A DNA stretch of 64,000 nucleotides from Coraliomargarita sp. (GTDB lineage: Bacteria; Verrucomicrobiota; Verrucomicrobiia; Opitutales; Coraliomargaritaceae). How positions within the stretch are numbered: the first letter of the stretch is position 1; every line of letters starts with the position of its first letter. A program made the translations under genes and the position numbers. Positions 14,922 through 55,264 of this stretch are shown here, piece after piece. The notes under the pieces were generated by a model. The model was not told the DNA's origin. It saw nothing but the letters and a program-made list of their open reading frames with translations, and ran no database searches. Where the stretch lies: the NCBI GenBank assembly GCA_965216325.1, contig OZ244160.1, forward strand, positions 2,368,001 to 2,432,000, given 5' to 3'.

Positions 14922-14939
14922 ATCACTCGTTTGAGTGAT
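14922..14939. promoter_or_regulatory. 18-bp operator copy 1 (leftward sulfatase operon)
   Basis: ATCACTC-GTTT-GAGTGAT; minus-strand TAGTCT (14895-14900) lies 21 bp away. Confidence 0.75.
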
Positions 14940-14961
14940 GTTCACGAGGTGCTGGCGCAGC

Positions 14962-14979
14962 ATCGCACATATGAGGGAT
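14962..14979. promoter_or_regulatory. 18-bp operator copy 2 (SGNH operon)
   Basis: ATCGCAC-ATAT-GAGGGAT; TGc-TAAGCT at 15001, 21 bp away. Confidence 0.75.
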
Positions 14980-15019
14980 GTCGGCAGAGGGGGGCTATGC
15001 TAAGCTTGATTGCTTGAAA

Positions 15020-16450
15020 ATGATGTCTCGGAGATTTTTAAAGTTCTTGCTAACAAGGAGCTCGGCTAGCCTGCGTTGCTTCGGCGTCTGCGTGTTGCTA
15101 GCTGCTGGGCTTCAGGCGGCGGATGGGCGTTTGCCTACTGCGATGCAGCCACAGCGGCCGGCCGAGTGGTGGCATCAGCGGCATCTGGAGAAAGTGCAGG
15201 AGGCTCGCGCGGCTGATTATGATATCGTGCTGATTGGCGATTCGATCACCCAGTATGCAGAGCGAGACCCACTCTATGGCTATTATTTTGGCAACCGAAA
15301 GGTGCTGAACCTGGGGTTTGGTGGGGATCAACCCCAGCATGTTTTGTGGCGCTTGCGCAATGGGGAGCTGGAGGGTGTGCAGCCCAAACTGGTCTCCCTG
15401 ATGATTGGCACGAACAGCGCTAAGCGTGAAAGTGCCGAGGCAATTGTTGCCGGGATTGAGGCAGTGCTGGATGAATTGGAGGTTCGGGTGCCGGATGCTC
15501 AGGTGGTTCTGTTCTCGGTGTTTCCACGCAAGGCAGGCAAAGAGCAGACCACGCTGGAAGCGGTGAACCGAGAGCTGGCTCAATTTGCTGAGCGCGAGCA
15601 GGTCACTCTTGTGGATATCAACACGCAGTTCTATTTAGACAACGGCGAGCTGAATGCCGAACTTTACCATACGGACTTACTGCATCTCAGCACTGGCGGC
15701 TATCAGGTCTGGTGGGCTGCCTTGGAGCCATACATTTCTGAAGTGCTTAATGAGCCTGCGCTACCTGCGAATCCCCATCGGGCGGTGCAGTCGGCCTTGC
15801 GTGATGGACCTCGGCATCAGCAGAAATTACTCGAAGCTGCGAAGGGTGATTATGATCTGGTTTTCGTAGGTGACTCGATTACCCATTTCTGGGAGCGCGA
15901 TGGGGAGTTTGGACTTCCGGTGTGGGAGCGCTATTACGGGCATCGAAAGGCGCTGAATTTAGGCTTCGGAGGCGACCGAACCGAGTGGGTGAATTGGCGT
16001 CTGCAAAATGGTGAGATCGAAGGGCTTGATCCCAAAGTCGTGGTGCTGATGATCGGCACTAATAATACACATATTGGGGAGGATGCTCCTGAGGAAACAC
16101 TCGCGGGGATTTCCAGTAATTTGAAAACGATTCGCTCGCATCTGCCGAATAGCAAGGTTTTGCTCTTGTCGATTTTCCCACGCGGAGAGAGTCTAGAGGA
16201 TCCACTTCGTCAACTCAATGAGCAGGTGAATGCAGGCTTGCCCGAATTGGCAGCGGCGGATCCAGCGGTGATCCATTTGGATATCAACGATCATTTTCTC
16301 GATGAAGATGGGCGTTTGTCGCGTGAGATTATGCCCGATTTGTTGCATCCCAATACGCAAGGCTATGCTGTTTGGGCTGCGGCGATGGAGCCTGTGTTGA
16401 GTCAGATGCTCGATGATCAAATGATCGCAGTTGCGACCCCTTCTTTATGA
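15020..16450 (+). CDS. Tandem SGNH/GDSL acetylesterase (PAF-AH-like), secreted
   Basis: Two domains, each with GDSIT, NLGFGGD, IGTN and DLLH. Confidence 0.9.
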   Translation: MMSRRFLKFLLTRSSASLRCFGVCVLLAAGLQAADGRLPTAMQPQRPAEWWHQRHLEKVQEARAADYDIVLIGDSITQYAERDPLYGYYFGNRKVLNLGFGGDQPQHVLWRLRNGELEGVQPKLVSLMIGTNSAKRESAEAIVAGIEAVLDELEVRVPDAQVVLFSVFPRKAGKEQTTLEAVNRELAQFAEREQVTLVDINTQFYLDNGELNAELYHTDLLHLSTGGYQVWWAALEPYISEVLNEPALPANPHRAVQSALRDGPRHQQKLLEAAKGDYDLVFVGDSITHFWERDGEFGLPVWERYYGHRKALNLGFGGDRTEWVNWRLQNGEIEGLDPKVVVLMIGTNNTHIGEDAPEETLAGISSNLKTIRSHLPNSKVLLLSIFPRGESLEDPLRQLNEQVNAGLPELAAADPAVIHLDINDHFLDEDGRLSREIMPDLLHPNTQGYAVWAAAMEPVLSQMLDDQMIAVATPSL

Positions 16451-19332: not shown

Positions 19333-19350
19333 ATCGCTCATACGTGCGAT
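19333..19350. promoter_or_regulatory. 18-bp operator copy 3
   Basis: ATCGCTC-ATAC-GTGCGAT; TATGGT at 19373, 22 bp away. Confidence 0.8.
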
Positions 19351-19386
19351 ATTCAAGATGGATTTTTGAGTGTATGGTATATGCTC

Positions 19387-22300
19387 ATGAAACTACCCCT
19401 GATTAACCTGAGTAAGGCTCTCAGTGTCTGTGCACTGCTTGCCTTGTCCTTGCAAACGCTTGCCCATGCGGCAGGCATTAACGTCTCGCTGGTGCAGAGT
19501 AATCACGGCACCTCTGGCAGCACCCCGATTGATCTGACCGCCGAAGGCGATATGGATTGGGGTGTTTTTGCGAATAGCACTTTAAGTCCGAGCACGCGTA
19601 TGAGCGGCGGTTCCGGACTTGCGAGTATCGCTTACCTCGGTGGTTCTGCCGATGCGTTCTATAATTTCTATTCGCAGAATAGCTACAACTGGACGAACGG
19701 GAACTCGCCGCCGACCGGTAGCAACAACCTGACAACCAATGCCAACATGACATCGGACGGTGACGGTCTGCGGATGTCATTTAACGTCGCCACACCCGGC
19801 ACCTATCGACTCAAGTTTTACGCGACCACTTCCGCGACCAATTTGCGTGCTACGGCAACGCTGAGCTCTGGGAACGTCAGCGATTCCGCTACCGGCACTG
19901 TGCCAGGCGGACTTGAGAAATACGAATTCACCGTGGATTTCACCGCGGACACAAGCGACACGCTTACCCTCGACGTCGCGAAGGATGGCGGCCAATCGAT
20001 TCTTGCCTACGAAGCCTTTTCCCTTTCTGCAGTCGATGTCACTCCGGTGCCGAACTTGAATGTCGATTCGAGTTTCACCTTTGAAAACGCATCGACTCCA
20101 GAGTCGTTCCAAATTCCCTATAGCAACAACGGTCAGCAGCCGCTTTCGATTTCGTCGGTCAACCTCGGTGGTGCCGATGCCCAATACTTTACGGTCAACT
20201 CCTATGCGTCATCCCTTGCAGTGGGTGCCAATGGCACGCTTGCACTGAACTTCAACCCATCGGGCGATCGCATCTATAACGCGACGCTGACGATTGCCTC
20301 CAATGACTCCGATTCACCGTCGACGGTGGTGAACATTTCGGTGAATTCCGGTAATGTCTCGCAGGAAATCGATATCTTCATTCTCGCTGGTCAGTCGAAC
20401 GCGAATGGCCAAGGCATGGTCAATAGCTTGACCCCGCAACAAGCCGGTCCGCACGACGCATTGATCTACACATCATGGCACACGCGCGCGGGCGATGCCT
20501 ATACCGATCAAAATCATTCGGGTTGGTTGGACGAGATCCTTGCAGGGGAAACCCGTTCCGACTGGCATACCAGTGTGAACTTTGGAGGCTCCCCTTGGTT
20601 TGGTCCGGAAGTTGGTTTTGTGGCACGTGCGAATGCGATTAACCTCACCAATGGCCGGCAGATTGCGATTATCAAGTATGCGGTCGACGGGTCGAATCTG
20701 AATCTGTGGCAGCCCGGCGGTATCTGCTGGAGCGGCTTAACAAATACACTCAACCTTGCAGTCGCTGGTCTCGAAAGCGAAGGCTACACGCCGAACTTCG
20801 CCGGTATGATCTGGTGGCAAGGCGAGAACGGCACCACGGTCGGCGGCTTGAATGGCTTCATTGGCCATGTGCGTAACCATTTGGCGAATACATTTGGTCT
20901 GCAGGATTCCGCGAACTTCCCGGTTGTCATTACGGGGAATGACGCGTGGGGCGCTGGTTTGAAGACCGGAGTCGCCGACAATGATGACGATGTCGAGTTC
21001 GTGAACTCTTACGAATACGGGCAGAACGTGATTGTCCACGTGGGCAGCAACGAAGGCCCGAACGATGTCACTGGCAACGGTGTGAACGACATGTATGACA
21101 TCGGTGAGGCTTATGCGGATCAACTGGCTTTGATCTTTGAGCCGAGCGAAGCGACGCCGCCTCCGACGGGTGGCGGTGACATTGTGGATGTCTTTATCGC
21201 GACCGGTCAGTCGAATGCGGTCTATCCGATGGATAACCAGTATGGATTTGGTCGCGGCATTCAGGATGCGCTGACCGCGTCCGGTCAGTTCTCAAATCCG
21301 ACGGTTGTCATGGACGGTGATGGCGGTCGTCCGATTGCGTATTGGTGGGCAGAGTTCTGGCCCGGTCCTTACACCGGCTACGACGACGATTTCTTTGACA
21401 CCAATGGAAGCGGCACCGGTAAACTGGAAGCGAAGCTCAATGAGATCATCGCCAATGGTGACACGCCACGTTTCCGCGGTGTCTTCTGGTGGCAGGGCGA
21501 GAGTGATGGTCTCGGTCCCTACGCAGACGCCAATACCTCACAGGCTGATTACGAGACCCGTTGGAACGGACTGCTTGCACAGCTGGATGCCGACCTTCAA
21601 GCAGCTGGTGTCAGCAGCAACGACTATAAGTTCGTCGTGAATACCGTCGCCGAGTCCGGCGATCAGATTAACAACATCCTGACTGCCATTGCGAATGGCG
21701 ATTCACGCGGTGCCATCTACGATGCACTCAACTCTCCATACCACGATCAGAACATCATCGTGGAGCCGAGCTACGGCAACCTGCATGACTACAACCACTT
21801 TGCAGTCGGGCAGGCGAACGTGCAGCTCTTTATCGACAGCTTCCTCGGCAACAGCGCGACTTACACCATAACCTTCATCAATGTCGATGGCTCGGTCACG
21901 ACCCAGACAGTCAACGAAGGTGTTGTGGCGACGCCACCAGCAGGGGTGAATACTGCAGACAAGACCTTCACTGCTTGGCCGACCGTGGTGCCTGCAACTG
22001 CGGATGCTACCTATACTGCGGAGTATACGCAAAACGGCGGAGGTGGCGACATCGTGGATGTCTTCATCGCAACCGGTCAGTCCAATGCCGCTTGGCCATG
22101 GGATAGTGTGAATCAAGTTGGCACCTTCCAATTTGGTGCAGGCGTGCAGGCTGCGTTGACTGCATCCGGACGCTTCTCGAACCCCACTGTGGTTCGCCAG
22201 GGCGAGCCAGGTATGGCGATCGAGAATTGGTTCAAGGATGGCGCGCCACAATGGGCCTATGGCAAAAACTTCTTCGGCACCTACCAAGGGGTGACTGCAG

Positions 22301-25300
22301 CACTTGAAGCCAAGATCGCCGAGATCGAGGCGGCGGGTAACACACCGCGCTTCCGAGGTGTCTTCTGGTTCCAAGGGGAAGCCGATGGTGTGGGAACCGC
22401 GCAACAGCTCAACACACCTGAGTCGGTCTACACCGAACGTTGGAATGGCTTGTTGAGTCAACTCACCTCCGATGTGGGGACGGGTGACTACTTCTTCGTC
22501 ATGAACACGGTCGGTAACTCTGGAAATTACATCAACAGTATCCTGACCAACATCACCAACGCGAATCCACGGGGTGCGCTCTTTAACACTCAGGTGGTTC
22601 CTTACCGCACGAACTTCCAGGATATCCACGGCTACGATCACTATGCAGTGGGCGAGGCGAATGTGCAGCTGTTCATCACGAACTTTGTGGACAACAATCC
22701 AGTGGGTGGGCCTTACACGATTACCTTCGTGAACGTGGATGACTCGATCACCACACAGGTCGTGAACGATGGCGTGATTCCGACCCCACCTCCGGGTGTC
22801 AATACGGCCAACCGCACCTTTACTGGATGGCCAACGATTGCAGTTGCTACGGAAGATGCGACTTACACTGCACTCTACACCAATTCAGGTAATGGTGCAT
22901 CCAGCATCGATGTCTCGCTGGCGCAAAGTGCACATGCGGGCTCTGCGACGACCGTTGACCTTACCGCAGAGGGTGCACTCGACTGGGGTGTCTTCTCCAA
23001 TAGCCCCTTGGCTCCAAGCACTCGCATGAGTGGTGGCGCAGGCTACACGGGGATGTCCTACATCGGTGGTTCGACTGAATCCTTCTATAACTTCTACTCG
23101 CAGAACAACTATAGCTGGACCAACGGCTCTCCAGATGCGACGGGCAGCAACAACCTCACCAGTAACGCCGACTTCGGCGCAAATGGCGATGGTGTTCGCC
23201 TGACCTTCAATGTGGATGCTGCTGGCACGTATCAGGTGAAGTTCTATGCAACCACATCGGATACCAATCTGTCCGCAACCGCATCGCTGCAAAACGGTAG
23301 TGTTTCAGACCTCGTGGACGGAACTCTCGAGACTGGGCTACAACGCTACGAATACACCGTGGAGTTCACCACCGATGGTGCCGACACACTGACGCTCGAT
23401 ATTGTGAAGTCCGGCGGAAGTGTGATCTTTGCCTACGAAGCCTATTCCTTTGCAGCGGTCACCTCCGATACACCTGCAAGCCTTGCGATTAGTTCGGAAG
23501 TTGAACTCTACAATGAAGTGTCCACGGAGACCTATCTGATTGACTTCAGTAACGATGGCCTCGGTGACGCATTGACCGTTTCTTCGGTGACACTAGGTGG
23601 TGCCGATGCAGCTTACTTTACAGTCGATTCATTCACGACACCAGTCGCTCAAGGTGAGGCCGGTGATATTGAACTTAGCTTCAATCCAACTGATGGTGAG
23701 CGCACATACGATGTGACCCTGACGATTGTCTCCAACGATCCGGAGTCTTCTTCGACTGTCGTCGATGTGATAGTTGATTCCGCAAGCCTCCGTCTTGGTA
23801 AGATTATCTGTATTGGAGATTCCATTACAGAAGGCTGGGCAGAGCGTCCGGCAGGAGACGGCAACTGGTCCTGGCGCTATGCGTTCTGGAAGCATCTGGT
23901 TGATCATAATGTGAGCCATGAATTTGTAGGCACACGCACGGGTAACTATCACCTGTCGCAGTCCGACGCAGTTTCAGTCTATCCCGACTATGCGGGTGAG
24001 TCCTTTGTCAATCGCCACGAAGCGATCTGGGGCCTCACCGCACTGGAGCGTGGCGACAGCGCACCGACCTATCTGGCTGCACTCAAGGATCTCGGCGAAA
24101 CGCCGGACACAGCGGTGGTCTTCCTTGGCGGCAATGATATCGGCTGGGACAGCTCAGTAACTGCGGAAACCGTTCGCGATCGCATCAAGGTGATCGTCGA
24201 CAACCTACAGGGAGACCTCGGCGATAGCGGCAATCCAGATATCCGCATCCTGCTTGTTTCAATTCTGCCGCGCTTCACACTGGATGGTGGCGGAGCCTAT
24301 ACGGTTCCGGTTGCGGAGAATACACACTACGCGGCGATTAACAGCTTGCTGCAGACACTTGCCACAGACGAAGCAACAGCGAGCTCCGAGGTGACCTACC
24401 TCGATCTGGCTACCAGTTTTAACAGTGCGAGCAATGTCTTCTACGATGGCGTGCACCCGAATGGCGCCGGCGAACAAATGGAGGCTGATGCGATCTTTGG
24501 CGCGCTCGTGGATGTGGCCAGCAGCTATACCATTACCTTCATCAATGTGGATGGCTCGCAAACCGTCCAGACCGTGGGTGAGGGCGAAGTCGCAACAGCA
24601 CCTCCGGGTGTCAACACTGCCGACCGCACCTTTACCGCATGGCCGACAATTGTTCCAGCAACCGCTGATGCAACCTACACGGCGCAGTATACGATCAATG
24701 TCTCCGCGAGCATCAGTGTTTCGCTGACACAAAGCGCAAGCGGTGGTCAGGGTTCGTCAGCAGTGGATCTCACTGCCGATGGTGGCCTAGATTGGGGCGC
24801 TTGGAATGGTGAGCTGACCGTTCCCGGCGAGACCATGGCAGGCGGCTACGGCCTCACGAGCCTGACTGCGATCGGTGCGACCAGTTTCGATGGTGGCTTC
24901 TTCAACGGTCAGAACAACTACAGCTGGTCCAATGGTAGCCCGACAACTGTGGGTAGCACGACGCTGGCCGGTAATGGAACAATCGCTGCACAAGGTGATG
25001 GCGTGCGCCTGACGGTGAACGTCGCAGCATCCGGTTCTTATCAGTTGAAATTCTATACCACGACTTACGATGTGAATTTGAATGCAACTGCAAGCCTCGC
25101 ATCCGGCGGTGTCTCCGATACCGTTGCTGGTAGCTATGTGGTCAACGGCACGGAGAAGTATGTATACACCGTGGACTTTACCACTGCAGGGCCGGACACA
25201 CTCTCACTCGACTTGGTAAAGAGTGGAGGTGCCAACGCGATTTTTGCTTATGAAGCATTCTCTCTGAAGTCCACTGACGGCGGCAATCCGCAGCCGACTA

Positions 25301-28300
25301 CCTATGAGATTACCTTCATCAATGTCGACGGCAGCCAAACGACTCAGACGGTCAATGCCGGTCAGGTCGCGACACCACCACCAGGTGTCAACACCGCTGA
25401 CAAGACCTTCACCGCGTGGCCAACAGTTGCGCCTGCGAATGCGGATGCGACCTACACCGCGCTCTATGAGGATGTGGTCAACACTTACGAAATTACCTTT
25501 ATCAATGTCGATGGCTCACAAAACACGCAGACGGTTGACGAGGGTGAGGTGGCAACTCCGCCGCCAGGTGTGAGCACTGCCGATAAGACCTTCACGGGGT
25601 GGCCGACGGTTGCGCCTGCGACCGCAGATGCGACTTACACGGCGCTCTACGAGGCTGTCGTGAACACTTACGAGATTACCTTTATCAATGTCGACGGCTC
25701 ACAAAGCTCTCAGACAGTCGATGAAGGTCAGGTTGCGACGCCACCGCCTGGCGTGAACGATGGGGACAAGATCTTCACTGATTGGCCGACAATTGCGCCT
25801 GCATCTGAAGACGCGACCTACACCGCCAACTATCAGGTGAATGTGGGTGCAGTTAACATCACATGGGACGGCGGCGCTGCCGATAACCTGTGGACCTCCG
25901 CTGCCAACTGGGATAGCGACCTGCTTCCAGTGAACGGCGATATCATCGCGATTGCGAATGGCGATACCGTTGATATCCCAGCCAACGATTGGTCGCTGGC
26001 TGGCGGCATCACCGTCAATGTTGCGGGCAACTCACAGATCACGAATAGCAGTGCGGCCGCTCGCCTCTACGGTGCGATGGTTTTTAACTTCGCAGCAGGC
26101 AGCGGTCTGTCCGGTGCATACATCGATCTCTATGATGGCACGCTGAACTTTGACGATGGCGCGACCTTTACGCCAAATAACATTCAGCATCGCGGCACGA
26201 CCACCTACGGACTCACGCTCTCGAGCACTGGTTTCACGACTCTGCTGCCTGGCACCTTGCATGATGCGGGTAACGAGGACTGGTCGGATGTGACCTTCAA
26301 TCTGGATGTCTCCAACTACGACACGGCCAATGGCCTCGTCGTTGAGTTGATCGACTATGCCGGTCACGCTGCGGCCTATGATGGCAGCTTCTCTCCAATC
26401 GTGAACGTGGAGGCGGGTGCATCCGGTCTGACCGGTGAGCTGAGCTTCGACACCGCGAGCTCGAAGGTGATCTACACCTTCGATACCACCTACGTGATTA
26501 CCTTCATCAACGTCGATGGTTCGCAAACCACGCAGACCGTTGTGCAAGGTGAGGTCGCTCAGCCACCAGCTGGTGTGAACTTCGGCGACCGCATCTTCGA
26601 TGGCTGGCCAACGGTTGCGCCAGCGAGCGCAGACGCCACTTACACGGCCAACTATCAAGTCGATGTTGGCGCGGTTGACCGCACATGGTCCGGTGGCGCA
26701 GGCGATAACCTTTGGACGACTGCGGCCAACTGGAGTGGCGGTATCGTGCCTGCGAACGGCGACGTGATCGCAGTCGCAAATGGCGGCACCATCGACATGC
26801 CGGCCAACGACTGGTCTCTGCCAACCGGCATTACGGTCAATGTCGCGGGTAACTCGCAGATCGATAACAGCAGTGCAGCTGCTCGCTTGTATGGTGCGAT
26901 GACCTTCAACTTCGCAGCGGGCAGTGGTCTGTCCGGTGCGTGGATCGATCTGGAAGGCGGCACGCTGAACTTCGAGGATGGTGCGACTTTTACTGCAAAC
27001 AATATTCAGCATCGTGGCACGACCACGTATGGCATCACGCTGTCCAACACCGGTTTCGCGACGCTGACTCCGGGAGCACTGCATAGCGGTGTCGATGAAG
27101 ACTGGTCCGATGTGACCTTCAACATTGATGCGTCCAACTATGACACCGCGAATGGCATGGTCCTCGAGTTGATTGACTTCGCAAGTCATGGCGCTGCCTA
27201 CGATGCGAACTTCAATCCGATCGTGAATCTCATTGACGGCGGTTCGGGTCTGACAGGTGTCTTGTTCTTCGATACCGCAAGTTCGAAAGTCATCTACACC
27301 TTCGATACCAAGTATGACATTACCTTCATCAATGTGGATGGTAGCCAGACGACTCAGACTGTGCTCGAAGGTGAAGTCGCAACACCACCAGCGGGTGTTG
27401 ACTTCGGTAACCGCTTCTTTACTGGATGGCCAAGCATTGCTCCGGCTACTGCGGATGCGACCTACACGGCAAACGACTACGAAGTCGTAGGTGGTGTGGA
27501 TAGCAGCTGGAGCGGTGGTGCAGGGGATGACCTCTGGACGACAGCGTCCAACTGGAGTGGGGCTGTCTTACCGGCAAGTGGTTCGACCATCGTGATCGCA
27601 CATGGCGGCACCGTGGACATCCCAGCCAACGACTGGTCACTTCCAAGCGGTATCACGGTGCATGTGATCGCGAACTCGCAGATCGGTAATAGCACTGCAG
27701 CTGCCCGCTTGTATGGAGCGATGAGCTTCAACTTCGCATCCGGTAGCGGCCTGTCCGGTGCGTGGATCGATCTGCAGGATGGCACGCTGTACTTCGAGGA
27801 TGGCGCGACCTTTACTGCAAATAACATTCAGCATCGTGGCACCACTACCTACGGACTCACACTTTCCGAAACTGGTTTCACCACGCTCACTCCGGGCAAC
27901 TTGTATAACGGAGTCGACGAAGACTGGTCGGATGTGACCTTCAATCTGGACGTCTCGGATTACGATCCAGCCAATGGCCTGACTATTGATTTGATCGATT
28001 ACTCCAGCCATGCGGCAGCCTATGGTGGCAGCTTCAATCCGACACTGAACCTCATCGATAACGGTAACGGACTCTCGGGTGCGCTGGTGTTCGATGCGGC
28101 GACATCCACGGTCTCCTTTGTGATCGATTACTACGTCGGTGCGGATGGCAGCAGCTTCCACTATGTGCTCGCACCATCTGGCTATGTCCCGATTCAAGAA
28201 GGGCAGCTTGCCAGCGGTGGCGGCACCTGGGCGGATGTCAGCTTCACGGTCGATATCTCGAACTACGATTACCAAGGCGATGTCTCGCTCGTGCTGTCGG

Positions 28301-29109
28301 ACTATAGCTCGCACGATGCCGTCTTCGATGGAGTCTTCAATCCGGCGATCAACATCGTGACCGGTGACACTGGCCTCACTGCCTTCGTGAGTTTCGACCC
28401 CGCGACTTCGGACGTGATCCTGACAATCGTTGAGGAGGTGCTCTGGGATGGCGAAGGGGGCGACAACTCCTGGCTCACCGCGGCCAACTGGAGTAGCGAC
28501 GCCGCACCAGCGGTTGACGACTGGCTCCGTGTTGGCAGTGGTGCAAGCGTGATCAACGCAGAACGCGATTTCACTTCGCTGCACATTGAATCCGGCGCAA
28601 GCGTAACCTTCAGCCAAGAGTTTCTCGATACCAACTACTTCGTCGTCGAGGGCAGCCTGGACAAGAGCGGCGTGTTCCGCTTGCAGAGTTCGGTGATCGA
28701 ACTGCATGGCAGTCTCGGTGCTTCGATTACCTTCCTCGATACCAATGGGGCGACCATTGATTTCTACGATGGTGCGGCCTTCGACAACAGCAACATGCAC
28801 TTCGAGCACAAAGGCTCGAATACCTTCGGCTATATCCTGTCAGAATCCGGTTTCACTACGCTCAATGCTGCCGGCCTCTGGGGCGCTGGCTGGACGGGTG
28901 TCACCTTCGACATCGATCTCTCCGCCTATGATATTAACAACGGCAGCACGATCGTGCTGGTCGATTACAGTTCGCATGCCGCAGCGTATGACGGAGCCTT
29001 CGATCCTGCCGCAGTGAATATCATCGCGGGCGACAGTGGATTGGATGCGACCCTAAGCTACGACGCCGTGAACTCCTCACTCGTGCTGACTGTTTTCTCC
29101 GCGAATTAA
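19387..29109 (+). CDS. Giant (~3240 aa) secreted modular protein: 3 SASA/CE6-like domains, 1 SGNH domain, beta-sandwich and ASH-like domains, ~60-aa stalk repeats and ~200-aa passenger-like repeats
   Basis: Signal peptide; three GQSN motifs each followed by WxQGE; GDSITEG...DGVHPN; repeats visible in the translation. Start ATG 19387 or 19381. Confidence 0.88.
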   Translation: MKLPLINLSKALSVCALLALSLQTLAHAAGINVSLVQSNHGTSGSTPIDLTAEGDMDWGVFANSTLSPSTRMSGGSGLASIAYLGGSADAFYNFYSQNSYNWTNGNSPPTGSNNLTTNANMTSDGDGLRMSFNVATPGTYRLKFYATTSATNLRATATLSSGNVSDSATGTVPGGLEKYEFTVDFTADTSDTLTLDVAKDGGQSILAYEAFSLSAVDVTPVPNLNVDSSFTFENASTPESFQIPYSNNGQQPLSISSVNLGGADAQYFTVNSYASSLAVGANGTLALNFNPSGDRIYNATLTIASNDSDSPSTVVNISVNSGNVSQEIDIFILAGQSNANGQGMVNSLTPQQAGPHDALIYTSWHTRAGDAYTDQNHSGWLDEILAGETRSDWHTSVNFGGSPWFGPEVGFVARANAINLTNGRQIAIIKYAVDGSNLNLWQPGGICWSGLTNTLNLAVAGLESEGYTPNFAGMIWWQGENGTTVGGLNGFIGHVRNHLANTFGLQDSANFPVVITGNDAWGAGLKTGVADNDDDVEFVNSYEYGQNVIVHVGSNEGPNDVTGNGVNDMYDIGEAYADQLALIFEPSEATPPPTGGGDIVDVFIATGQSNAVYPMDNQYGFGRGIQDALTASGQFSNPTVVMDGDGGRPIAYWWAEFWPGPYTGYDDDFFDTNGSGTGKLEAKLNEIIANGDTPRFRGVFWWQGESDGLGPYADANTSQADYETRWNGLLAQLDADLQAAGVSSNDYKFVVNTVAESGDQINNILTAIANGDSRGAIYDALNSPYHDQNIIVEPSYGNLHDYNHFAVGQANVQLFIDSFLGNSATYTITFINVDGSVTTQTVNEGVVATPPAGVNTADKTFTAWPTVVPATADATYTAEYTQNGGGGDIVDVFIATGQSNAAWPWDSVNQVGTFQFGAGVQAALTASGRFSNPTVVRQGEPGMAIENWFKDGAPQWAYGKNFFGTYQGVTAALEAKIAEIEAAGNTPRFRGVFWFQGEADGVGTAQQLNTPESVYTERWNGLLSQLTSDVGTGDYFFVMNTVGNSGNYINSILTNITNANPRGALFNTQVVPYRTNFQDIHGYDHYAVGEANVQLFITNFVDNNPVGGPYTITFVNVDDSITTQVVNDGVIPTPPPGVNTANRTFTGWPTIAVATEDATYTALYTNSGNGASSIDVSLAQSAHAGSATTVDLTAEGALDWGVFSNSPLAPSTRMSGGAGYTGMSYIGGSTESFYNFYSQNNYSWTNGSPDATGSNNLTSNADFGANGDGVRLTFNVDAAGTYQVKFYATTSDTNLSATASLQNGSVSDLVDGTLETGLQRYEYTVEFTTDGADTLTLDIVKSGGSVIFAYEAYSFAAVTSDTPASLAISSEVELYNEVSTETYLIDFSNDGLGDALTVSSVTLGGADAAYFTVDSFTTPVAQGEAGDIELSFNPTDGERTYDVTLTIVSNDPESSSTVVDVIVDSASLRLGKIICIGDSITEGWAERPAGDGNWSWRYAFWKHLVDHNVSHEFVGTRTGNYHLSQSDAVSVYPDYAGESFVNRHEAIWGLTALERGDSAPTYLAALKDLGETPDTAVVFLGGNDIGWDSSVTAETVRDRIKVIVDNLQGDLGDSGNPDIRILLVSILPRFTLDGGGAYTVPVAENTHYAAINSLLQTLATDEATASSEVTYLDLATSFNSASNVFYDGVHPNGAGEQMEADAIFGALVDVASSYTITFINVDGSQTVQTVGEGEVATAPPGVNTADRTFTAWPTIVPATADATYTAQYTINVSASISVSLTQSASGGQGSSAVDLTADGGLDWGAWNGELTVPGETMAGGYGLTSLTAIGATSFDGGFFNGQNNYSWSNGSPTTVGSTTLAGNGTIAAQGDGVRLTVNVAASGSYQLKFYTTTYDVNLNATASLASGGVSDTVAGSYVVNGTEKYVYTVDFTTAGPDTLSLDLVKSGGANAIFAYEAFSLKSTDGGNPQPTTYEITFINVDGSQTTQTVNAGQVATPPPGVNTADKTFTAWPTVAPANADATYTALYEDVVNTYEITFINVDGSQNTQTVDEGEVATPPPGVSTADKTFTGWPTVAPATADATYTALYEAVVNTYEITFINVDGSQSSQTVDEGQVATPPPGVNDGDKIFTDWPTIAPASEDATYTANYQVNVGAVNITWDGGAADNLWTSAANWDSDLLPVNGDIIAIANGDTVDIPANDWSLAGGITVNVAGNSQITNSSAAARLYGAMVFNFAAGSGLSGAYIDLYDGTLNFDDGATFTPNNIQHRGTTTYGLTLSSTGFTTLLPGTLHDAGNEDWSDVTFNLDVSNYDTANGLVVELIDYAGHAAAYDGSFSPIVNVEAGASGLTGELSFDTASSKVIYTFDTTYVITFINVDGSQTTQTVVQGEVAQPPAGVNFGDRIFDGWPTVAPASADATYTANYQVDVGAVDRTWSGGAGDNLWTTAANWSGGIVPANGDVIAVANGGTIDMPANDWSLPTGITVNVAGNSQIDNSSAAARLYGAMTFNFAAGSGLSGAWIDLEGGTLNFEDGATFTANNIQHRGTTTYGITLSNTGFATLTPGALHSGVDEDWSDVTFNIDASNYDTANGMVLELIDFASHGAAYDANFNPIVNLIDGGSGLTGVLFFDTASSKVIYTFDTKYDITFINVDGSQTTQTVLEGEVATPPAGVDFGNRFFTGWPSIAPATADATYTANDYEVVGGVDSSWSGGAGDDLWTTASNWSGAVLPASGSTIVIAHGGTVDIPANDWSLPSGITVHVIANSQIGNSTAAARLYGAMSFNFASGSGLSGAWIDLQDGTLYFEDGATFTANNIQHRGTTTYGLTLSETGFTTLTPGNLYNGVDEDWSDVTFNLDVSDYDPANGLTIDLIDYSSHAAAYGGSFNPTLNLIDNGNGLSGALVFDAATSTVSFVIDYYVGADGSSFHYVLAPSGYVPIQEGQLASGGGTWADVSFTVDISNYDYQGDVSLVLSDYSSHDAVFDGVFNPAINIVTGDTGLTAFVSFDPATSDVILTIVEEVLWDGEGGDNSWLTAANWSSDAAPAVDDWLRVGSGASVINAERDFTSLHIESGASVTFSQEFLDTNYFVVEGSLDKSGVFRLQSSVIELHGSLGASITFLDTNGATIDFYDGAAFDNSNMHFEHKGSNTFGYILSESGFTTLNAAGLWGAGWTGVTFDIDLSAYDINNGSTIVLVDYSSHAAAYDGAFDPAAVNIIAGDSGLDATLSYDAVNSSLVLTVFSAN
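25303..25851 (+). repeat. Three tandem 183-bp (61-aa) coding repeats
   Basis: YEITFINVDGSQ... units begin at 25303, 25486 and 25669; five more dispersed copies occur in the same gene. Confidence 0.9.
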
Positions 29110-29706: not shown

Positions 29707-29724
29707 ATCGCACGTATGAGCGAT
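29707..29724. promoter_or_regulatory. 18-bp operator copy 4
   Basis: ATCGCAC-GTAT-GAGCGAT; TATGGT at 29746, 21 bp away. Confidence 0.8.
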
Positions 29725-29779
29725 GTGGGTAATGCAGCACTCTGGTATGGTTCGGCCTTTCAAAAACTCCCCCGATCTA

Positions 29780-32700
29780 ATGAGAAAGTCTCTATCTGTT
29801 TTCGCCTTATTTGTATGTCTGTCACTGCAGGCTCTGGTTCATGCGGCGGTTGTCGATGTCTTCGTCGCTACCGGGCAGTCCAATGCTGCGTGGCCTTGGG
29901 ATAGTGAGAACCAAGTCGGCACTTTCCAATTCGGTGTGGGTGTGCAGGACGCACTGGATGCCTCGGGGCTCTTCTCGAATCCGACCGTGGTGATTGGCGG
30001 TGTGCCCGGTCAGGAGATTGCTGCCTGGTATAATGACTCGGGCGCAAATGGTTTATATAATACCGAGTTTTTCGACACGACCGCAGTGGGAACGGGTGCT
30101 CTGGAAGCCAAGATCGCTGAGATTATTGGCAATGGCGATACGCCACGCTTTCGGGGTGTCTTCTGGTTCCAGGGCGAAGCGGATGGCTTGAACGGCACAG
30201 AGGCATCGTATACCTCGAGATGGAACGGCTTACTGGGGCAACTGGCGTCCGACGTTGGCAGCAACGATTTTAACTATGTGATGAATCGGGTTGGTAACTC
30301 TGGCACACTGATTAACGATACCTTAGCTGCGATCACCAATGCCGATGCTCGTGGTGCCTTGTTTGATACACAGGTCGCGCCGTATCGAACCAACACGGCC
30401 GACATTCATGGTTACGATCACTATGCGGTGGGACAGGCCAATGCACAGCTCTTCATCGATACCTTTGTGCGTCCGGTTGATATCTTTATTGTGGCAGGGC
30501 AGTCGAACGCGAATGGGCAGGGGCTCGTCAGTGAGTTAACTGTTCCGCAAAGCACGCAGGATGCGATGTTCTACAGTTCATGGCATTTGCAGGCCTTTAA
30601 CGCAGAGTCCACTCAGTATTATACAAACTGGCTAGCGCAGACGGTTGCGGGGCAAACTCGATCGACCGGTAATGTGAGCTCCACCTTTGGTAATAGTAGC
30701 TGGTTTGGCCCTGAGGTGGGCTTTGTGGCCAGAGCCAATGAAATCAATCTGACTGCAAATCCGATGGGTATTCTGAAGTATGCAGTAGATGGCTCTGCGT
30801 TAACCAGCGATGTGAATTTTTCAGACTGGGATTTATCGGCTGCGACCTTGAATGATGGAGACTGTTGGAGGGGCTTTCAGGCTGCGCTGAGCGATGCGGT
30901 GACCAAGCTGCAGAATGACGGGCACACTCCAAATTTCAAAGGCATGATTTGGTGGCAAGGTGAGAATGGCACCAATGCCACGGATTTGAACGCCTTTGTC
31001 GCAGCGGTGCGAAGTCACCTCGCAAGCAACTACGGCATTCAGAATGAATCGGAGTTCCCGATTGTGATTACTGGCAATGACTTCTGGGGGGCGGGCCTGA
31101 AAGCTGGAGTCTCGGATTTGGATGATGCGGTTGGTTTTATTGACTCGGTGACATATGGTCAAATTGCCGGTTACACGAATGTTCACCTTGGTAGCGGGCA
31201 AGGTGGCAATCTGACTGACGTTACCGGCAATGGCATCAACGATATGTATGACATCGGTGTGGCCTATGCCGATGAGATGGCTGTGCTATTGAGCGCTGCG
31301 GTGACACCTCCTCCAAGTGGGCCGGATGTGTCATGGGATGGTGGGGCCGGTGATGGCTTGTGGACTTCGGAGGTAAACTGGAGCGGTGATGCGCTGCCTG
31401 CCAGCGGCGATACGATTGAGATCAGTAATGGCGACACGGTGGATATGCCTGCGAATTTCTTTGCGCCGACAAATTCTACTACGGATGTATCCGGTGGATC
31501 ACAATTGACCAATTCGGGTGCAGCCGCCCGGCTAACTTCAGGTGCAGTGATCAATTTCGCCAGCGGCAGTGGTCTATCGGGCGCGTATATCGATCTCAAT
31601 TCTGGAACGATCAACTTTGTTGATGGCGCGACTTTAACTGTTGCGAATATACAACACCGTGGCGATGTGACTTACGGTATTACGTTTTCGAGCAATGGCT
31701 TCGCAACGCTGACTCCGGGGGCGCTGCACGATGCCGGAAATGAAGACTGGTCGAATGTGACCTTTAATCTCGATTTTGCGAACTACGATAGTGCGAACGG
31801 TGCAGTCGTAGAGTTGATCGACTATACCGGTCATGCGACAGTTTACAACGGCAGCTTCAATCCGACCGTAAACGTTGAGGCTGGGGATACCGGCCTGACA
31901 GGCACGCTGTCTTTCGATACTGCTAGCTCTAAAGTTATCTATACCTTCAATAGTGCGCCGACACCTCCTCCAAGTGGGCCGGATGTGTCATGGGATGGTG
32001 GGGCCGGTGATGGCTTGTGGACTTCGGAGTTAAACTGGAGCGGTAATGCGCTGCCTGCCAGCGGCGATACGATTGAGATCAGTAATGGTGACACGGTGGA
32101 TATGCCTGCGGATGATTGGTCACTGGCAACAGGTGTGACGATCCATGTAACTGGTAACTCACAGATCGACAGTAGCATGGGTGCGGCGCGTTTGCACTCC
32201 GGTATGGTCTTCAACTTTTCCGCAGGCAGTGGAATCGGTGGGCAGTGGATCCACTTCGAGAACTGCACATTCAACTTCGAAGATGGTGCGACGTTCACGC
32301 CGGGAACCGTTCAGCACCGTTTCAACGCGACGTACGGAATTACCTTCTCCAGTACGGGCTTTACGACGCTGACGCCTGGTGAGTTGAAGGTCTGGGACAC
32401 TGAAGATTGGTCGAATGTGACCTTCAATATCGAGCTGTCCGAGTATGATACGTCCAACGGATTGGTCGTCGAGTTGATCGATTTCGCGGGCCATGCGGAT
32501 GTCTTCAACGGCAGTTTTAATCCCACGATCAATGTCGAGGCCGGTGACTCCGGGCTGACGGGCACGCTATCCTTCGATACTACGAACTCCAAGGTGATCT
32601 ATACTTTTGATGGTGTCGTCATGCCGACGACCTACGAGATCACATTCATCAACGTGGATGACTCCGAAAGCACTGTGACGGTGAATGAGAATGAAGTGGC

Positions 32701-36117: not shown

Positions 36118-36197
36118 GGTAGGGAGGTCTGCCTCAGACCTCCGTTGCGGCGTTGTCAGTGTTGTGGAGCGGAGGCATTGGGGCATGCCTCCCTACC
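36118..36197. repeat. REP doublet (REPIN/BIME-like) downstream of RAYT
   Basis: GGTAG-GGAGGTCTG-cct-CAGACCTCC ... GGAGGCAT-tggggc-ATGCCTCC-CTACC. Confidence 0.9.
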
Positions 36198-36648
36198 TTT
36201 GAGGTTCCCATTGCCATTCCCAGTTTTCGGTATCCTTGCACAGACCTGCGCGTATCGGATTTTTGCGTATGTAGGTGGCTTTTTCGTCCCACGCATTCCG
36301 ACCACGTAAACGATGCTCGAAAAAGCCTTCTTGCCACTGAATCTTATGTTGTCGGGCGGTGAGGCGTTTCCAATTGGAGATCGATTGCTTCATCGAACTA
36401 AGCGGCTCGGGAAAACTCATAATCGCATGTAAATGATCCGGCATAAGCATCAGGAGATGCCCATACCAATCGCCTCGCTTATGCCCGAACTCAAATGAGT
36501 GTATTAACTTAGGTGCAATTGTTGGAAGTGTGAGCTGATCTGTGTGTCGTTGTTGGCAGCAAATGGTGAGAAAGAAACGTTCGTTCTCGGGGCGTATCCA
36601 ATTTGGCGTTTCATGGCGTAGCCATTTGCGACTCGGAAGCTCACTCAT
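36193..36648 (-). mobile_element. rayT: REP-associated tyrosine transposase (RAYT, Y1 HUH family)
   Basis: FFLTICC, MPDHLH (HUH), WQEGFFEHRLR, YIRKNPIRAGL; flanked by GTAG REPs. Confidence 0.9.
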
Positions 36649-36695: not shown

Positions 36696-36803
36696 GGTAG
36701 GGAGGTCTGCCCCAACTCGACCTGAGCTCGTCGCAGGTCAGACCTCCGGTGTACAGTGTTGTCAGTGTTGTTGAGCGGAGGCATGGTGGCATGCCTCCCT
36801 ACC
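36696..36803. repeat. REP doublet upstream of RAYT, with a ~25-bp insert in the first loop
   Basis: Same arms and GTTGTCAGTGTTGT spacer as 36118-36197. Confidence 0.9.
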
Positions 36804-36812: not shown

Positions 36813-37499
36813 TCAGTCTTCCTTCCTCTTGATGGGTAAGATGCCTGTTTTATAGGCTGTGGAAACGGCTGCGGGGGCATTGAGCACATTGAGTTTGTCG
36901 TAAACATGGCGGATGTGCGTCGAGACCGTGAAGAAGCTGATGCCCAGTTGCTCGGCGATTTCCTTCTTCACTAGGCCATCGCTGAGGAGCACGAGCACTT
37001 CCATCTCGCGGCTGGATAGAGTGGGCTGGTTGGCATCTTTAGTTGGAGCATTTTGTATCTGCTCCATGATGTATTTGGCCACCTTACTATCGAGGTGTGC
37101 ACCGCCATCGGCAACAGTATGAATGGCATCTTTGATTTGCTTTACGGTCGACGATTTCAGGAGGTAGCCTGTTGCTCCATTCTTAATCGCGGTGAGGACA
37201 TCGCTCTCTGCATCGGACTGGGTGATCACAATGATGGGTGTTTCGGGCAGGTATTCGCGAATCCACCGCATTGCTTCGAGGCCGGACATTTCGGGGAGAT
37301 TGAGATCCAGCAAAACGATATCGGGAGCGGCACCTTCAGACCCCTGTGCGGATTTCGGCTCCATCGCACGGAGTGCATGTTCGGCGGATCCAAAAATGCC
37401 GACGAGATTGATGTCGTCCTCAAACTCGAGGGCCATTTTGAGGACGTTGCGATACTCGGGATTATCTTCGACGACGATTACTTTGATGGGACTTGGCAT
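36813..37499 (-). CDS. NarL/LuxR-family response regulator
   Basis: REC domain (VVEDN, LLDLNLP, GATGYLLK) plus HTH (LSSREMEVL...KEIAEQLGISFFTVSTHIRHVYDKLNV). Confidence 0.95.
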   Translation of the reverse strand: MPSPIKVIVVEDNPEYRNVLKMALEFEDDINLVGIFGSAEHALRAMEPKSAQGSEGAAPDIVLLDLNLPEMSGLEAMRWIREYLPETPIIVITQSDAESDVLTAIKNGATGYLLKSSTVKQIKDAIHTVADGGAHLDSKVAKYIMEQIQNAPTKDANQPTLSSREMEVLVLLSDGLVKKEIAEQLGISFFTVSTHIRHVYDKLNVLNAPAAVSTAYKTGILPIKRKED

Positions 37500-39494: not shown

Positions 39495-39545
39495 TCGTGT
39501 GAGTGGTCGAATATAGGGATAGGGGCTAGGAGCAGTCGAGATAAG

Positions 39546-39573
39546 AAAAAGGCCGCAGCCTTTCGGCTGCGGC
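39546..39573 (-). terminator. Intrinsic terminator after the PEP-CTERM gene
   Basis: Minus strand GGCCGCAGCC-GAAA-GGCTGCGGCC (loop shares a base) followed by TTTTT. Confidence 0.85.
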
Positions 39574-39609
39574 CCATCCCTATATTATATATCCCCTTAT
39601 AATGAAAAT

Positions 39610-40617: not shown

Positions 40618-40720
40618 AATGTCTCGTATCTATGGGTTAGGAAGCCTTTTTGCTGGGGCAACTGAGTTGATGGGTAATTGATTTTGAGGCTGAGATTACA
40701 GGATGTGCTGTTTTTTGTCT

Positions 40721-40738
40721 ATCGCACGATTGTGCGAT
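40721..40738. promoter_or_regulatory. 18-bp operator copy 5
   Basis: ATCGCAC-GATT-GTGCGAT; minus-strand TAATCT (40693-40698), 22 bp away. Confidence 0.82.
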
Positions 40739-41608: not shown

Positions 41609-41714
41609 TGACAGAATGATAGCTGACAGGGAGGGGGTGTTTCAGTTCGTATCGGTAATACGGCTTCTATTGAGTTGTTATTTAAAGGTATAGCATGGCT
41701 CAAGTGGCTGGGAT

Positions 41715-41732
41715 ATCGCACATATGTGTGAT
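41715..41732. promoter_or_regulatory. 18-bp operator copy 6
   Basis: ATCGCAC-ATAT-GTGTGAT; minus-strand TGc-TATACC (41687-41692), 22 bp away. Confidence 0.78.
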
Positions 41733-41853: not shown

Positions 41854-41871
41854 ATCGCACATATGTGTGAT
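41854..41871. promoter_or_regulatory. 18-bp operator copy 7 (pilin-like gene)
   Basis: ATCGCAC-ATAT-GTGTGAT; TATGAT at 41893, 21 bp away. Confidence 0.8.
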
Positions 41872-42039
41872 GTGGCGATCTGTTCGGCCGTGTATGATCG
41901 TTCATCATTTCAATTGGGCCTATTAGTCGCGCCAGTCCGGATCGCGATCAATTGATCTAGGTCTAGTTTTCTCGAAAACGTCGCTTCGTTACTTGTCATC
42001 TGCTTACCCCTCTACTTTCTTTATTACTCCTGCTCCTCC

Positions 42040-46256: not shown

Positions 46257-46337
46257 GGTAGGGAGGTCTGCCCTCAGACCTCTGATGCGGCGTTGTCAGT
46301 GTTGTCGAGCGGGGGCATGGGGGCATGCCTCCCTACC
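46257..46337. repeat. Third copy of the RAYT-associated REP doublet
   Basis: GGTAGGGAGGTCTGCCCTCAGACCTC...GCGGCGTTGTCAGTGTTGT...GGCATGCCTCCCTACC. Confidence 0.9.
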
Positions 46338-50975: not shown

Positions 50976-51056
50976 GATGTAAGTTTCTGGGGCGCGGTTT
51001 TTGGTCAATGCGCGTGGTAAAGAACCGATACTCTAGCAATAATCAATGGGTGTCGC

Positions 51057-51074
51057 ATCGCACAGACGTGCGAT
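51057..51074. promoter_or_regulatory. 18-bp operator copy 8 (divergent promoters)
   Basis: ATCGCAC-AGAC-GTGCGAT; TATATT at 51096 (+) and TGc-TAGAGT at 51030-51035 (-), each 21 bp away. Confidence 0.82.
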
Positions 51075-51187
51075 GATCGTGAGCGGTTTTATGCCTATAT
51101 TGTGGAGTTTTTAAGACGGATGTTGAGGCGCTCATAAAAGCATGGAAGTTATCAACAGCGTGCTGTCACTTATTAAGACCCCATAGT

Positions 51188-53131: not shown

Positions 53132-53133
53132 CC

Positions 53134-54045: not shown

Positions 54046-54073
54046 ATTATTATTGAATCGGTATCTTAGAGCT

Positions 54074-55081
54074 ATGCGTATTGGAATTATAGGAACTGGT
54101 TGGATCGCAGAGAAGCATCTTGAATCTTTAACGGTGACCGAGGGGGCGGAGGTGGTCGCGGTGGCTGGCCGGAATCAGCAGCGTGCCGCTGAGTTGGCGG
54201 TTCCGCTTGGGGCCGCTGTTTATGAGGATTACCTGCCGATGTTGCAGAGGGAATCTTTGGACGCGGTTTTTATTCTGCTGCCTCCGCATCTACACGGAGA
54301 TGTGGAGCGTGCTTGCTCGGAGCATGTGGGGGCTGTGTTGGTGGAGAAGCCAATCACCACTTCGCTGGCGCAGGCGTGTGAGATCAACAGTTATTTCAAA
54401 GAGGCGGGCACAATTGTGTCGGTTGGTTATATGAACCGTTATCGTGATGCCGTTCAGGCGGCGCGGGCTGTTTTTTCAAATCCGGAGACACCTGGCGTGA
54501 TGGCGAACGGTTGGTGGATTACGCAGATGCCGCCGCCTAGCTGGTGGCGTTGTTTGGAGCAGTCCGGCGGCCAGTTTGTGGAGCAATGCACTCATTTGGT
54601 CGACTTGAGTCGTTATCTCTTTGGTGAGATCCAGGAAGTGAGTGCCTACAGTATGCGTGGATCCATGACCGAAGTGCCCGATTTTTCCGTGGATGATGGG
54701 ATGGCCGTGAATGTGCGCTTCGAGTCCGGCGCGCTGGGCTCCTTCTGCACGGGGTGCTTCCCTTTGGCCGGACATCCTGAGGAGCAGGGCGCTGGAATTA
54801 GCTTGAACCTTTCTTCGCGGAAGCAACGCGTGGTCTTTGAAGGCTCGAATTTTGAGGCCAAATTGTTCTCTGGAGCAAACGATGCTACCGAACTTCCGAT
54901 TGGGGCGGATCCCTTCCATCAGCAGACTCAGTCGTTCGTGAATGCTGTGCGTAATAAGGATACTCGGCAGATCCTATCCGACTATGAGGATGCCATGCGG
55001 ACTTTGGCAGTTACCTTGGCTGCGAACGAGTCGGCGCATGAGCGGGGTGGAGCGCCTGTTCGAGTTGAATCTATACTCTGA
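54074..55081 (+). CDS. Gfo/Idh/MocA family oxidoreductase
   Basis: MRIGIIGTGWIA Rossmann motif, VEKP, SGGQFVEQCTHLVD. Confidence 0.92.
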   Translation: MRIGIIGTGWIAEKHLESLTVTEGAEVVAVAGRNQQRAAELAVPLGAAVYEDYLPMLQRESLDAVFILLPPHLHGDVERACSEHVGAVLVEKPITTSLAQACEINSYFKEAGTIVSVGYMNRYRDAVQAARAVFSNPETPGVMANGWWITQMPPPSWWRCLEQSGGQFVEQCTHLVDLSRYLFGEIQEVSAYSMRGSMTEVPDFSVDDGMAVNVRFESGALGSFCTGCFPLAGHPEEQGAGISLNLSSRKQRVVFEGSNFEAKLFSGANDATELPIGADPFHQQTQSFVNAVRNKDTRQILSDYEDAMRTLAVTLAANESAHERGGAPVRVESIL

Positions 55082-55160
55082 ATTGCTCTCGTTATCAGGG
55101 CTGTCTCTTCTTCTCGCACAAGTCTTCAATGCTGACGGAGTTTTGTGTCGGATATCTGGG

Positions 55161-55178
55161 GTCGCACGTATGAGCGAT
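55161..55178. promoter_or_regulatory. 18-bp operator copy 9
   Basis: GTCGCAC-GTAT-GAGCGAT; TATGGT at 55201, 22 bp away. Confidence 0.8.
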
Positions 55179-55264
55179 GTTGCCCTTAGTTGGACTCCGC
55201 TATGGTATTGGTTTTTAAAGATGTGCTCTACAGATAACAACAGGGCTGCCGGACGATCTCATTT

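Follow-up and report, generated by a model that had tools for sequence, protein, structure and literature searches.

Marine Verrucomicrobia have an important part in the degradation of sulfated, acetylated glycans of algae, and how their large enzyme loci are switched on is apparently not in print. The question is raised here by a locus in a 64,000-nt stretch (the window; all positions refer to it unless stated) of the genome of Coraliomargarita sp. (G000; 3,064,510 bases in one contig), in which an 18-bp palindrome, ATCGCAC-N4-GTGCGAT, stands at nine positions in front of transcription units for esterases, sulfatases, and other proteins. The answer that we regard as probable is that the palindrome is the predicted binding site for a dimer of the locus-encoded NarL/FixJ-family response regulator (36813–37499), which would activate ten promoters from it. 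In the full-text literature, a body of text with most subscription journals outside its scope, we found no description of the motif or of the regulator family in Verrucomicrobia. The locus offers a complete, testable wiring diagram in which one sensor kinase and one regulator would be connected with ten promoters and about 20 genes.

A palindrome restricted to one locus and its promoters

The palindromes at the nine positions are a genuine, locus-restricted feature of the genome. The strict consensus, comprising two heptamers in inverted orientation around four unspecified base pairs (7-4-7), occurs without mismatch twice in the window (40721 and 51057; 0.00 expected from 100 shuffles). With at most one mismatch it occurs six times in the genome, all six in the window, and with at most two mismatches it occurs 27 times in the genome, eight of them in the window (14962, 19333, 29707, 40721, 41715, 41854, 51057, and 55161). 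The ninth copy, at 14922, has four mismatches to the strict consensus, placed symmetrically and each present as a variant in other copies, and it fits the degenerate form ATCRCWC-N4-GWGYGAT. The degenerate form has seven exact matches in the genome, all seven in the window, and 12 genome matches with one mismatch, including the two remaining copies, 14962 and 55161. At three or fewer mismatches the window holds nine matches versus 4.08 expected by chance, so that this threshold by itself is uninformative; the set includes a coding match at 50598 (three mismatches), which lies within an esterase gene and was discarded as a site, and it omits the copy at 14922. The nine copies listed by an earlier reading of the letters of the window (the sequence-only reading) are real by these counts, and the outcome that this reading had set out as its refutation, a motif equally common in coding or unrelated DNA, is not what we find: the matches with at most one mismatch and the exact degenerate matches all fall in the locus.

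The genome was also scanned with a weight matrix, which had been suggested as a check. The matrix was derived from the nine copies themselves, so that their own scores (22.3–28.7 bits) are circular; the top match elsewhere in the genome scores 22.3 bits, and the next scores 18.2 bits. The former, at genome position 2147759, lies in the 3′ end of a coding sequence, has no −10 hexamer, and was discarded as a site. With gene starts corrected, all nine copies are entirely intergenic, and intergenic DNA makes up 9.8% of the window. Specifically, two starts in the list of open reading frames (ORFs) overlap sites (14978 and 29723) and are probably spurious 5′ extensions, as had been supposed; signal-peptide-like starts lie at 15020 and 29780.

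Each of the ten served directions has a −10-like hexamer 21 or 22 nt past the site, in the direction of the gene. All ten hexamers named in the sequence-only reading were found at this spacing; nine are of the form TAnnnT and one is TATACC, and the extended TGn that it had noted at several promoters precedes four of the ten. The ten promoters have no recognizable −35 element, the match being no better than background. In particular, the best match to TTGACA at 16–18 nt from the hexamer has a mean of 2.9 of 6 positions, versus 2.31 of 6 at 538 background TAnnnT sites; nine of the ten promoters have three or fewer consensus matches, and the promoter at 40721 alone reaches five. A −35 region at background level fits activator-dependent promoters. 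If transcription starts 7 nt past the hexamer, the site centre would lie at about −42.5 or −43.5, and the site would span about −51 to −34. Class II activator sites are centred at about −41.5 to −43.5. For the earlier claim that the site is centred over the −35 position, the geometry is confirmed as measured from the −10-like hexamers.

Leaderless or near-leaderless messages are predicted for several of the promoters, with ATG 9–14 nt past the −10 hexamer (14895–15023 and 19373–19389). Specifically, an ATG at 19387, 9 nt past the hexamer, predicts a near-leaderless message for the gene of a 3247-aa esterase.

The locus-encoded regulator and its relatives

The candidate regulator has the features that place it in the NarL/FixJ family: a receiver domain (PF00072, 1.7e-23), a C-terminal GerE/LuxR-type helix-turn-helix (HTH) domain (PF00196, 2.3e-16, residues 160–214), and an adjacent HisKA_3 kinase. 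Its closest solved relatives are VraR and NarL (NarL alignment over residues 3–207, E 3e-28), and E11, D12, D65, T93, and K115 are at positions conserved in receiver domains; we take these residues to be the acidic pocket (E11 and D12), the phospho-acceptor Asp, the Thr/Ser, and the Lys, respectively. It is the sole DNA-binding regulator found in the locus by Pfam and NCBIfam annotation; the other ORFs of unclear function encode PEP-CTERM proteins, a REP-associated transposase, or proteins of no family. Its assignment to the palindrome is supported by comparison, in that it is the only regulator of the locus, orthologous kinase–regulator pairs stand beside the same site, and the palindromes of paralogous loci track the recognition helix.

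Orthologous loci were compared among relatives in Coraliomargarita and Opitutia (Verrucomicrobiota). In a genome of the same genus, G002, contig C22 is syntenic with the locus by tblastn (kinase 61% and regulator 58% identical, the regulator 63% in a separate search; esterase, GH63-like, PEP-CTERM, and other genes 42–82%). A matrix scan of the G002 locus revealed that four orthologous promoters have weaker sites, their −10 hexamers lying at 21–23 nt; the flanking DNA has diverged, and the promoter-proximal half-site and the position of the hexamer are retained. In a genome of another genus, G081, contig C77 encodes a kinase 67% identical and a regulator 72–79% identical, and the adjoining GDSL operon has a site with the −10 hexamer at 22 nt. 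Further copies at the same spacing are present in G085 and G086. Six metagenome contigs encode a regulator 75–77% identical, three of them being at least 10 kb long (regulator 76–77%), and two of these three carry five sites in total, with −10 hexamers at 21–22 nt. Individual sites can be followed between genomes: site 2 has counterparts in the orthologous promoters of G002, G081, and G085; at site 5 the orthologous G002 promoter keeps both the site and a TATTCT at 22 nt; and site 6 is kept in the orthologous promoters of G002 and of contig L079. The recurrent targets across these genomes are GDSL esterases, PEP-CTERM proteins, and GH36-like proteins. The exact degenerate form has zero or one match per genome in 60 relatives. 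The scan of orthologous loci called for by the sequence-only reading has thus found the same site beside orthologous kinase–regulator pairs in G002, G081, and metagenome contigs, with the exception of contig L078.

Two further observations concern these loci. The regulator gene of G081:C77 (L058 10330–11149) is read in two frames, with residues 102–141 unmatched; a frameshift, an assembly error, or a divergent linker is possible. Contig L078 has, at 1063–1080, a perfect palindrome of another kind (TGTGC...GCACA core, presumably CRP/FNR-like), 21 nt before a TAnnnT and just upstream of the orthologous kinase gene.

The regulator family is expanded in related genomes. The sensor domain of the kinase was detected in 14 of the 301 genomes sampled across the phylum and, within the same family, in 10 of 20, with up to six or more copies per genome. 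Paralogous loci, around family members with regulators 45–58% identical, were searched for 7-4-7 dyads followed by TAnnnT at 21–22 nt. A first de novo search of these loci for palindrome families (at least three copies, both halves with at most one mismatch) gave nothing convincing, and the −10 spacing criterion then revealed sites. For a strict class of palindromes (ATC/GAT ends and at least three of four inner pairs), the fraction with a −10 hexamer (TAnnnT) at 21–22 nt is six of seven in the window (64 kb), one of 104 in the rest of G000 (3.0 Mb), 10 of 18 in a first batch of paralogous loci (347 kb), five of 10 in a second batch (162 kb), and none of three around more distant regulators (152 kb). 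Both batches together (509 kb) have 15 of 28, or about 3 per 100 kb, versus 0.03 per 100 kb in the rest of G000. Many paralogous loci have a dyad of their own, often intergenic beside the kinase gene and facing both ways, and in several the palindrome faces the kinase gene; in every orthologous or paralogous locus checked, the kinase and regulator genes remain paired.

The recognition-helix region (residues 187–203) is identical in all regulators beside ATCGCAC-type sites, in proteins that are 72–79% identical overall. Five helix groups of at least two members have a single half-site each: FFTVSTHIRH with ATCGCAC (four of four loci), F[A/S]TVDTHIRH with ATCACGC (five of five), YRTVDTH[I/V]RH with ATCGCGC (two of two), LETV[S/N]THIKN with ATCCCCC (two of two), and [S/P]KTVAIHAGH with ATAGGTA (two of two); single loci supply further pairs. 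The association is expressed as counts, and the members of a group are orthologues. The variable helix positions include those aligned to NarL residues 188 and 192, which reportedly touch bases. The 7-4-7 dyads beside family members, together with the co-variation of site and helix, suggest that a dimer of the regulator would occupy the inverted heptamers.

A broader proposal, for which we see about even chances, is that a lineage-specific, expanded two-component family, in which a NarL-type regulator is paired with a kinase whose periplasmic sensor is a CBM32-like tandem, may form the switchboard for glycan loci in marine Opitutales and in some other Verrucomicrobiota. Each paralogue would have a private 7-4-7 palindrome, usually ATC-NNNN-N4-NNNN-GAT, 21–22 bp before the −10 hexamer, with the inner four bases read by a few helix residues. 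If this is true, regulons, and perhaps a simple protein–DNA recognition code, would be predictable from sequence for organisms beyond cultivation or manipulation, and the private half-sites would make both regulon prediction and a recognition-code experiment feasible. If the architecture recurs, it would allow regulons to be deduced from genomes and metagenomes and the esterases, sulfatases, and glycosidases under shared control to be ascribed to a single substrate.

Outside the window, G000 has a further perfect 7-4-7 palindrome (G000:C1:2903499–2903516; L110 ~4500), with an ATCCCGT-type half-site 21 nt before TACAAT, upstream of a sodium:solute symporter (SSF) gene and a GH95 gene and beside a sulfatase and an esterase. 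It appears orphaned, in that one kinase and one regulator of the family were found in the searched part of G000. Near a paralogous kinase–regulator pair, G026:C2 has a different hairpin-like repeat of 18 bp, present in four copies inside 3 kb (L031 7747, 7937, 8137, and 10716).

Weighing the proposed activation by the locus regulator

The sequence-only reading had called the palindrome the activator site of the response regulator. The link to the regulator is supported by orthologues, paralogues, and helix co-variation, while activation, rather than repression, is what we infer from the promoters.

Several points weigh against this assignment. At the promoters, the site centre is calculated from −10-like hexamers alone, the 40721 promoter departs from the others in its −35 match, and repressors too bind over the −35 position. 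Of 12 sequencing runs found by a run search, four contain the stretch, and none of these four is recorded as RNA. In the locus, the kinase–regulator operon has no palindrome of its own. Among relatives, the exact degenerate form has no match in the orthologous G002 locus, which has just weak half-palindromes; metagenome contig L078 (12.9 kb, regulator 76% identical) has no match of 9 bits or more; and about a third of about 33 paralogous loci have no convincing palindrome, several of these being contigs of 3–7 kb. In the helix comparison, regulator and sites are shared by descent in orthologous loci, so that the matching counts are not independent; the regulators adjoining the ATCACGC-like sites of L065 and L097 are of other helix types, ATCACGC-type regulators occurring elsewhere in the genomes or genus relatives of these loci; and L027 and L065 have near-identical helices and different sites.

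With the site covering the −35 position, a five-of-six −35 match under or beside the site at 40721, and NarL-family regulators able to repress, the same regulator could instead bind the palindrome as a repressor, blocking RNA polymerase at −35 until a signal releases it. We consider this unlikely, since nine of the ten promoters, with their −35 matches at background level, should be weak unaided; since the spacing of 21–22 nt holds in all ten directions and also in orthologues and paralogues, and activation requires phasing whereas occlusion does not; and since the site at 51057 is equidistant from two divergent promoters, like the tra box of TraR.

Slightly less likely is that the palindrome is bound by another DNA-binding protein, whose gene lies elsewhere in the genome, and that the local regulator is simply nearby. 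Binding by the local regulator is a prediction from sequence, and the siteless kinase–regulator operon would be accommodated by such a protein, as would the orphan site of the same class at genome position 2903499, with its other half-site and no matching family regulator found in G000, and the sites of L065 and L097, which do not match the helix group of the adjoining regulator. Across at least 20 loci, from several genera and from metagenome contigs, the constant neighbour of this promoter architecture is nonetheless a kinase–regulator pair of this family, while the targets vary; the half-site shifts when the recognition helix shifts; and no second regulator gene was found in the locus.

It is very improbable that the nine copies represent a structural or mobile repeat (a REP-like hairpin or a terminator) or an alternative-sigma −35-type element, and we rejected both identities: although the 40721 site with its adjoining T run scores as terminator-like on the plus strand, and true REP-like hairpins of other sequence are present in the window, the sites lie 5′ of genes, and a terminator is needless between divergent genes, where three of them stand, a T run accompanies one of the nine, on the gene-free strand, the copies are confined to a single locus and missing from the other 3.0 Mb, unlike REP elements, and the dyad symmetry and two-way use at 51057 are unlike a directional sigma element, with no sigma-factor gene found in the locus by Pfam.

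The predicted regulon, its sensor, and known systems

If the palindrome is the activator site of the locus regulator, the kinase would sense a periplasmic glycan fragment via its two CBM32-like domains and would phosphorylate the regulator, probably at D65. The regulator would then bind the palindrome, centred about 42.5–43.5 bp ahead of each start, the usual place of a −35 element, and would bring RNA polymerase to the ten promoters, in which a −10 hexamer, often extended, is present and a −35 element is missing. About 20 genes would be switched on, the products of which would de-esterify, desulfate, and cleave a fucose-containing, acetylated, sulfated glycan and import the products. By Pfam and NCBIfam annotation, the locus encodes two sulfatases, a GH29 fucosidase, an SSF symporter, GH36-like and GH63-like enzymes, many esterases (GDSL, SASA, and alpha/beta hydrolases, including the 3247-aa protein and a 2126-aa protein), an oxidoreductase, two PEP-CTERM proteins, and one protein with a weak match to a Verrucomicrobia cassette; no SusC or SusD genes were found by Pfam among the annotated ORFs. 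The 3247-aa (19366–29109) and 2126-aa (29723–36103) proteins are very large and secreted, contain SASA and GDSL esterase domains together with Ig-like and Listeria-Bacteroides repeats, and each have a predicted regulated promoter of their own.

The hydropathy profile of the kinase indicates a signal peptide, about 410 aa in the periplasm, and a single membrane helix. The periplasmic part, modelled from an alignment of 21 family members, is predicted to form two beta-sandwiches (mean pLDDT 87, pTM 0.84). Foldseek matches (E ~1e-6) include tandem CBM32 modules, an F-type lectin, CBM32 modules of GH29 fucosidases, and discoidin (F5/8 type C) pairs; TM-scores are low for the whole model (about 0.2) and are 0.5–0.63, target-normalised, for single CBM32 modules. 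It is plausible from this model that the CBM32-like domains sense a glycan fragment directly.

The sequence-only reading had described a regulon of the locus, which holds for the ten transcription units that carry sites and does not extend to the operon of the regulator itself. Lacking a site, the kinase–regulator operon falls outside the predicted regulon, barring possible read-through. Direct positive autoregulation in G000 was rejected, in that a strong terminator and a separate sigma-70-like promoter lie ahead of this operon (Table 1).

Table 1. Positions of the palindromes, their −10-like hexamers, and the associated regulatory features in the window
Feature	Coordinates	Strand	Description	Match
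Predicted regulon	2957–57451		ten transcription units, about 20 genes (Pfam, NCBIfam; operons from ORF list and starts)	
Response regulator	36813–37499	−	228 aa; receiver and GerE/LuxR-type HTH; proposed binding protein	
Sensor histidine kinase	37503–39494	−	663 aa; PF07730 (HisKA_3) and ATPase domain; 4 bp upstream of regulator	
Sigma-70-like promoter, kinase–regulator operon	39510–39539	−	TCGACT, 18 nt, TATATT	9/12; consensus match only
Intrinsic terminator	39550–39575	−	11-pair stem, 9 G-C pairs, then T run; between PEP-CTERM gene and kinase gene	
Site 1	14922–14939		degenerate; serves minus-strand six-gene operon (sulfatase to sulfatase, 14851 down to 2957)	22.3 bits; 0 mismatches to degenerate form
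Promoter 1 hexamer	14895–14900	−	TAGTCT	21 nt from site 1
Site 2	14962–14979		serves plus-strand operon of two GDSL esterases	2 mismatches
Promoter 2 hexamer	15001–15006	+	TAAGCT, TGn ahead	21 nt from site 2
Site 3	19333–19350		serves 3247-aa multidomain esterase gene	1 mismatch
Promoter 3 hexamer	19373–19378	+	TATGGT	22 nt from site 3
Site 4	29707–29724		serves 2126-aa SASA-domain esterase gene	1 mismatch
Promoter 4 hexamer	29746–29751	+	TATGGT, TGn ahead	21 nt from site 4
Site 5	40721–40738		perfect palindrome; serves minus-strand 335-aa PEP-CTERM protein gene	0 mismatches
Promoter 5 hexamer	40693–40698	−	TAATCT	22 nt from site 5
Site 6	41715–41732		serves minus-strand 280-aa PEP-CTERM protein gene	1 mismatch
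Promoter 6 hexamer	41687–41692	−	TATACC, TGn ahead	22 nt from site 6
Site 7	41854–41871		serves plus-strand operon of 1161-aa and 231-aa proteins	1 mismatch
Promoter 7 hexamer	41893–41898	+	TATGAT	21 nt from site 7
Site 8	51057–51074		perfect palindrome; serves two divergent operons	0 mismatches
Promoter 8 hexamer	51096–51101	+	TATATT	21 nt from site 8
Promoter 9 hexamer	51030–51035	−	TAGAGT	21 nt from site 8
Site 9	55161–55178		serves GH36-like (melibiase family) gene	2 mismatches
Promoter 10 hexamer	55201–55206	+	TATGGT	22 nt from site 9

The predicted arrangement is conceptually an ordinary NarL/LuxR-type two-component regulon, in a group of bacteria that has been little studied; the site sequence, the sensor, and the host group are new. 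For NarL, a single 7-2-7 site centred at −43.5 at the Escherichia coli yeaR promoter supports non-canonical class II activation, for which one dimer suffices (PMC10853779). NarL shares with the present regulator the receiver and GerE HTH family, a HisKA_3 kinase partner, and inverted heptamers just upstream of or over the −35 position, and differs from it in having a 7-2-7 (16 bp) rather than a 7-4-7 (18 bp) site with an unrelated half-site sequence. NarL responds to nitrate via NarX, whereas the sensor here is predicted to be a tandem CBM32-like periplasmic domain, and NarL is global, whereas the present regulator appears to serve a single locus.

Two LuxR-type systems with 18-bp sites are close in geometry. 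For TraR of Agrobacterium Ti plasmids, an 18-bp tra box lies about 45 nt upstream, partly over the −35 element, with one box serving two divergent operons (PMC3907764); the inverted repeat, the class II-type position, and the divergent use recur in what we predict for 51057. TraR responds to an acyl-homoserine lactone and not to phosphorylation, has no receiver domain or kinase, and has a box of unrelated sequence. For SsrB of Salmonella SPI-2, an 18-bp degenerate 7-4-7 palindrome stands before every SPI-2 operon, with one poor heptamer tolerated (PMC2837388). SsrB resembles the present regulator in belonging to the NarL family, in having a 7-4-7 site in front of each operon of one horizontally structured locus, and in pairing a good with a degenerate heptamer, as in the G002 promoters; heptamer sequence, biology (a virulence island), and host differ.

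The polysaccharide utilization loci (PULs) of Bacteroidota have hybrid two-component systems or SusR-type regulators (cf. PMC3878776), with each glycan locus having its own sensor-regulator from an expanded family and private operators. The logic of a locus-owned sensor-regulator, an expanded family, and private operator sites is the same, and the components differ: single-polypeptide hybrid kinases with AraC-type output, SusR, or ECF/anti-sigma pairs there, and a separate kinase (663 aa) and GerE-type regulator (228 aa) here. A hybrid PUL regulator is a single polypeptide that includes the sensor, kinase, receiver, and AraC-type HTH, unlike the pair of this locus. SsrB is also said to counter silencing, of which the present locus shows no evidence.

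Repeats of another kind and a transposase gene are also present in the window. The minus-strand ORF at 36193–36648 (151 aa) encodes a REP-associated tyrosine transposase (NCBIfam NF047646, 1.8e-22), and its gene is flanked by a G+C-rich hairpin palindrome of other sequence (36173–36190 and 36779–36796), a third copy of which lies 10 kb away (46313–46330); similar G+C-rich hairpins are present in the orthologous G002 locus. Just beyond the predicted regulon, adjoining a lysyl-tRNA synthetase gene, are two PIN-domain genes, at 62098–62499 on the minus strand and at 63138–63521 on the plus strand, which possibly encode toxins of toxin–antitoxin systems.

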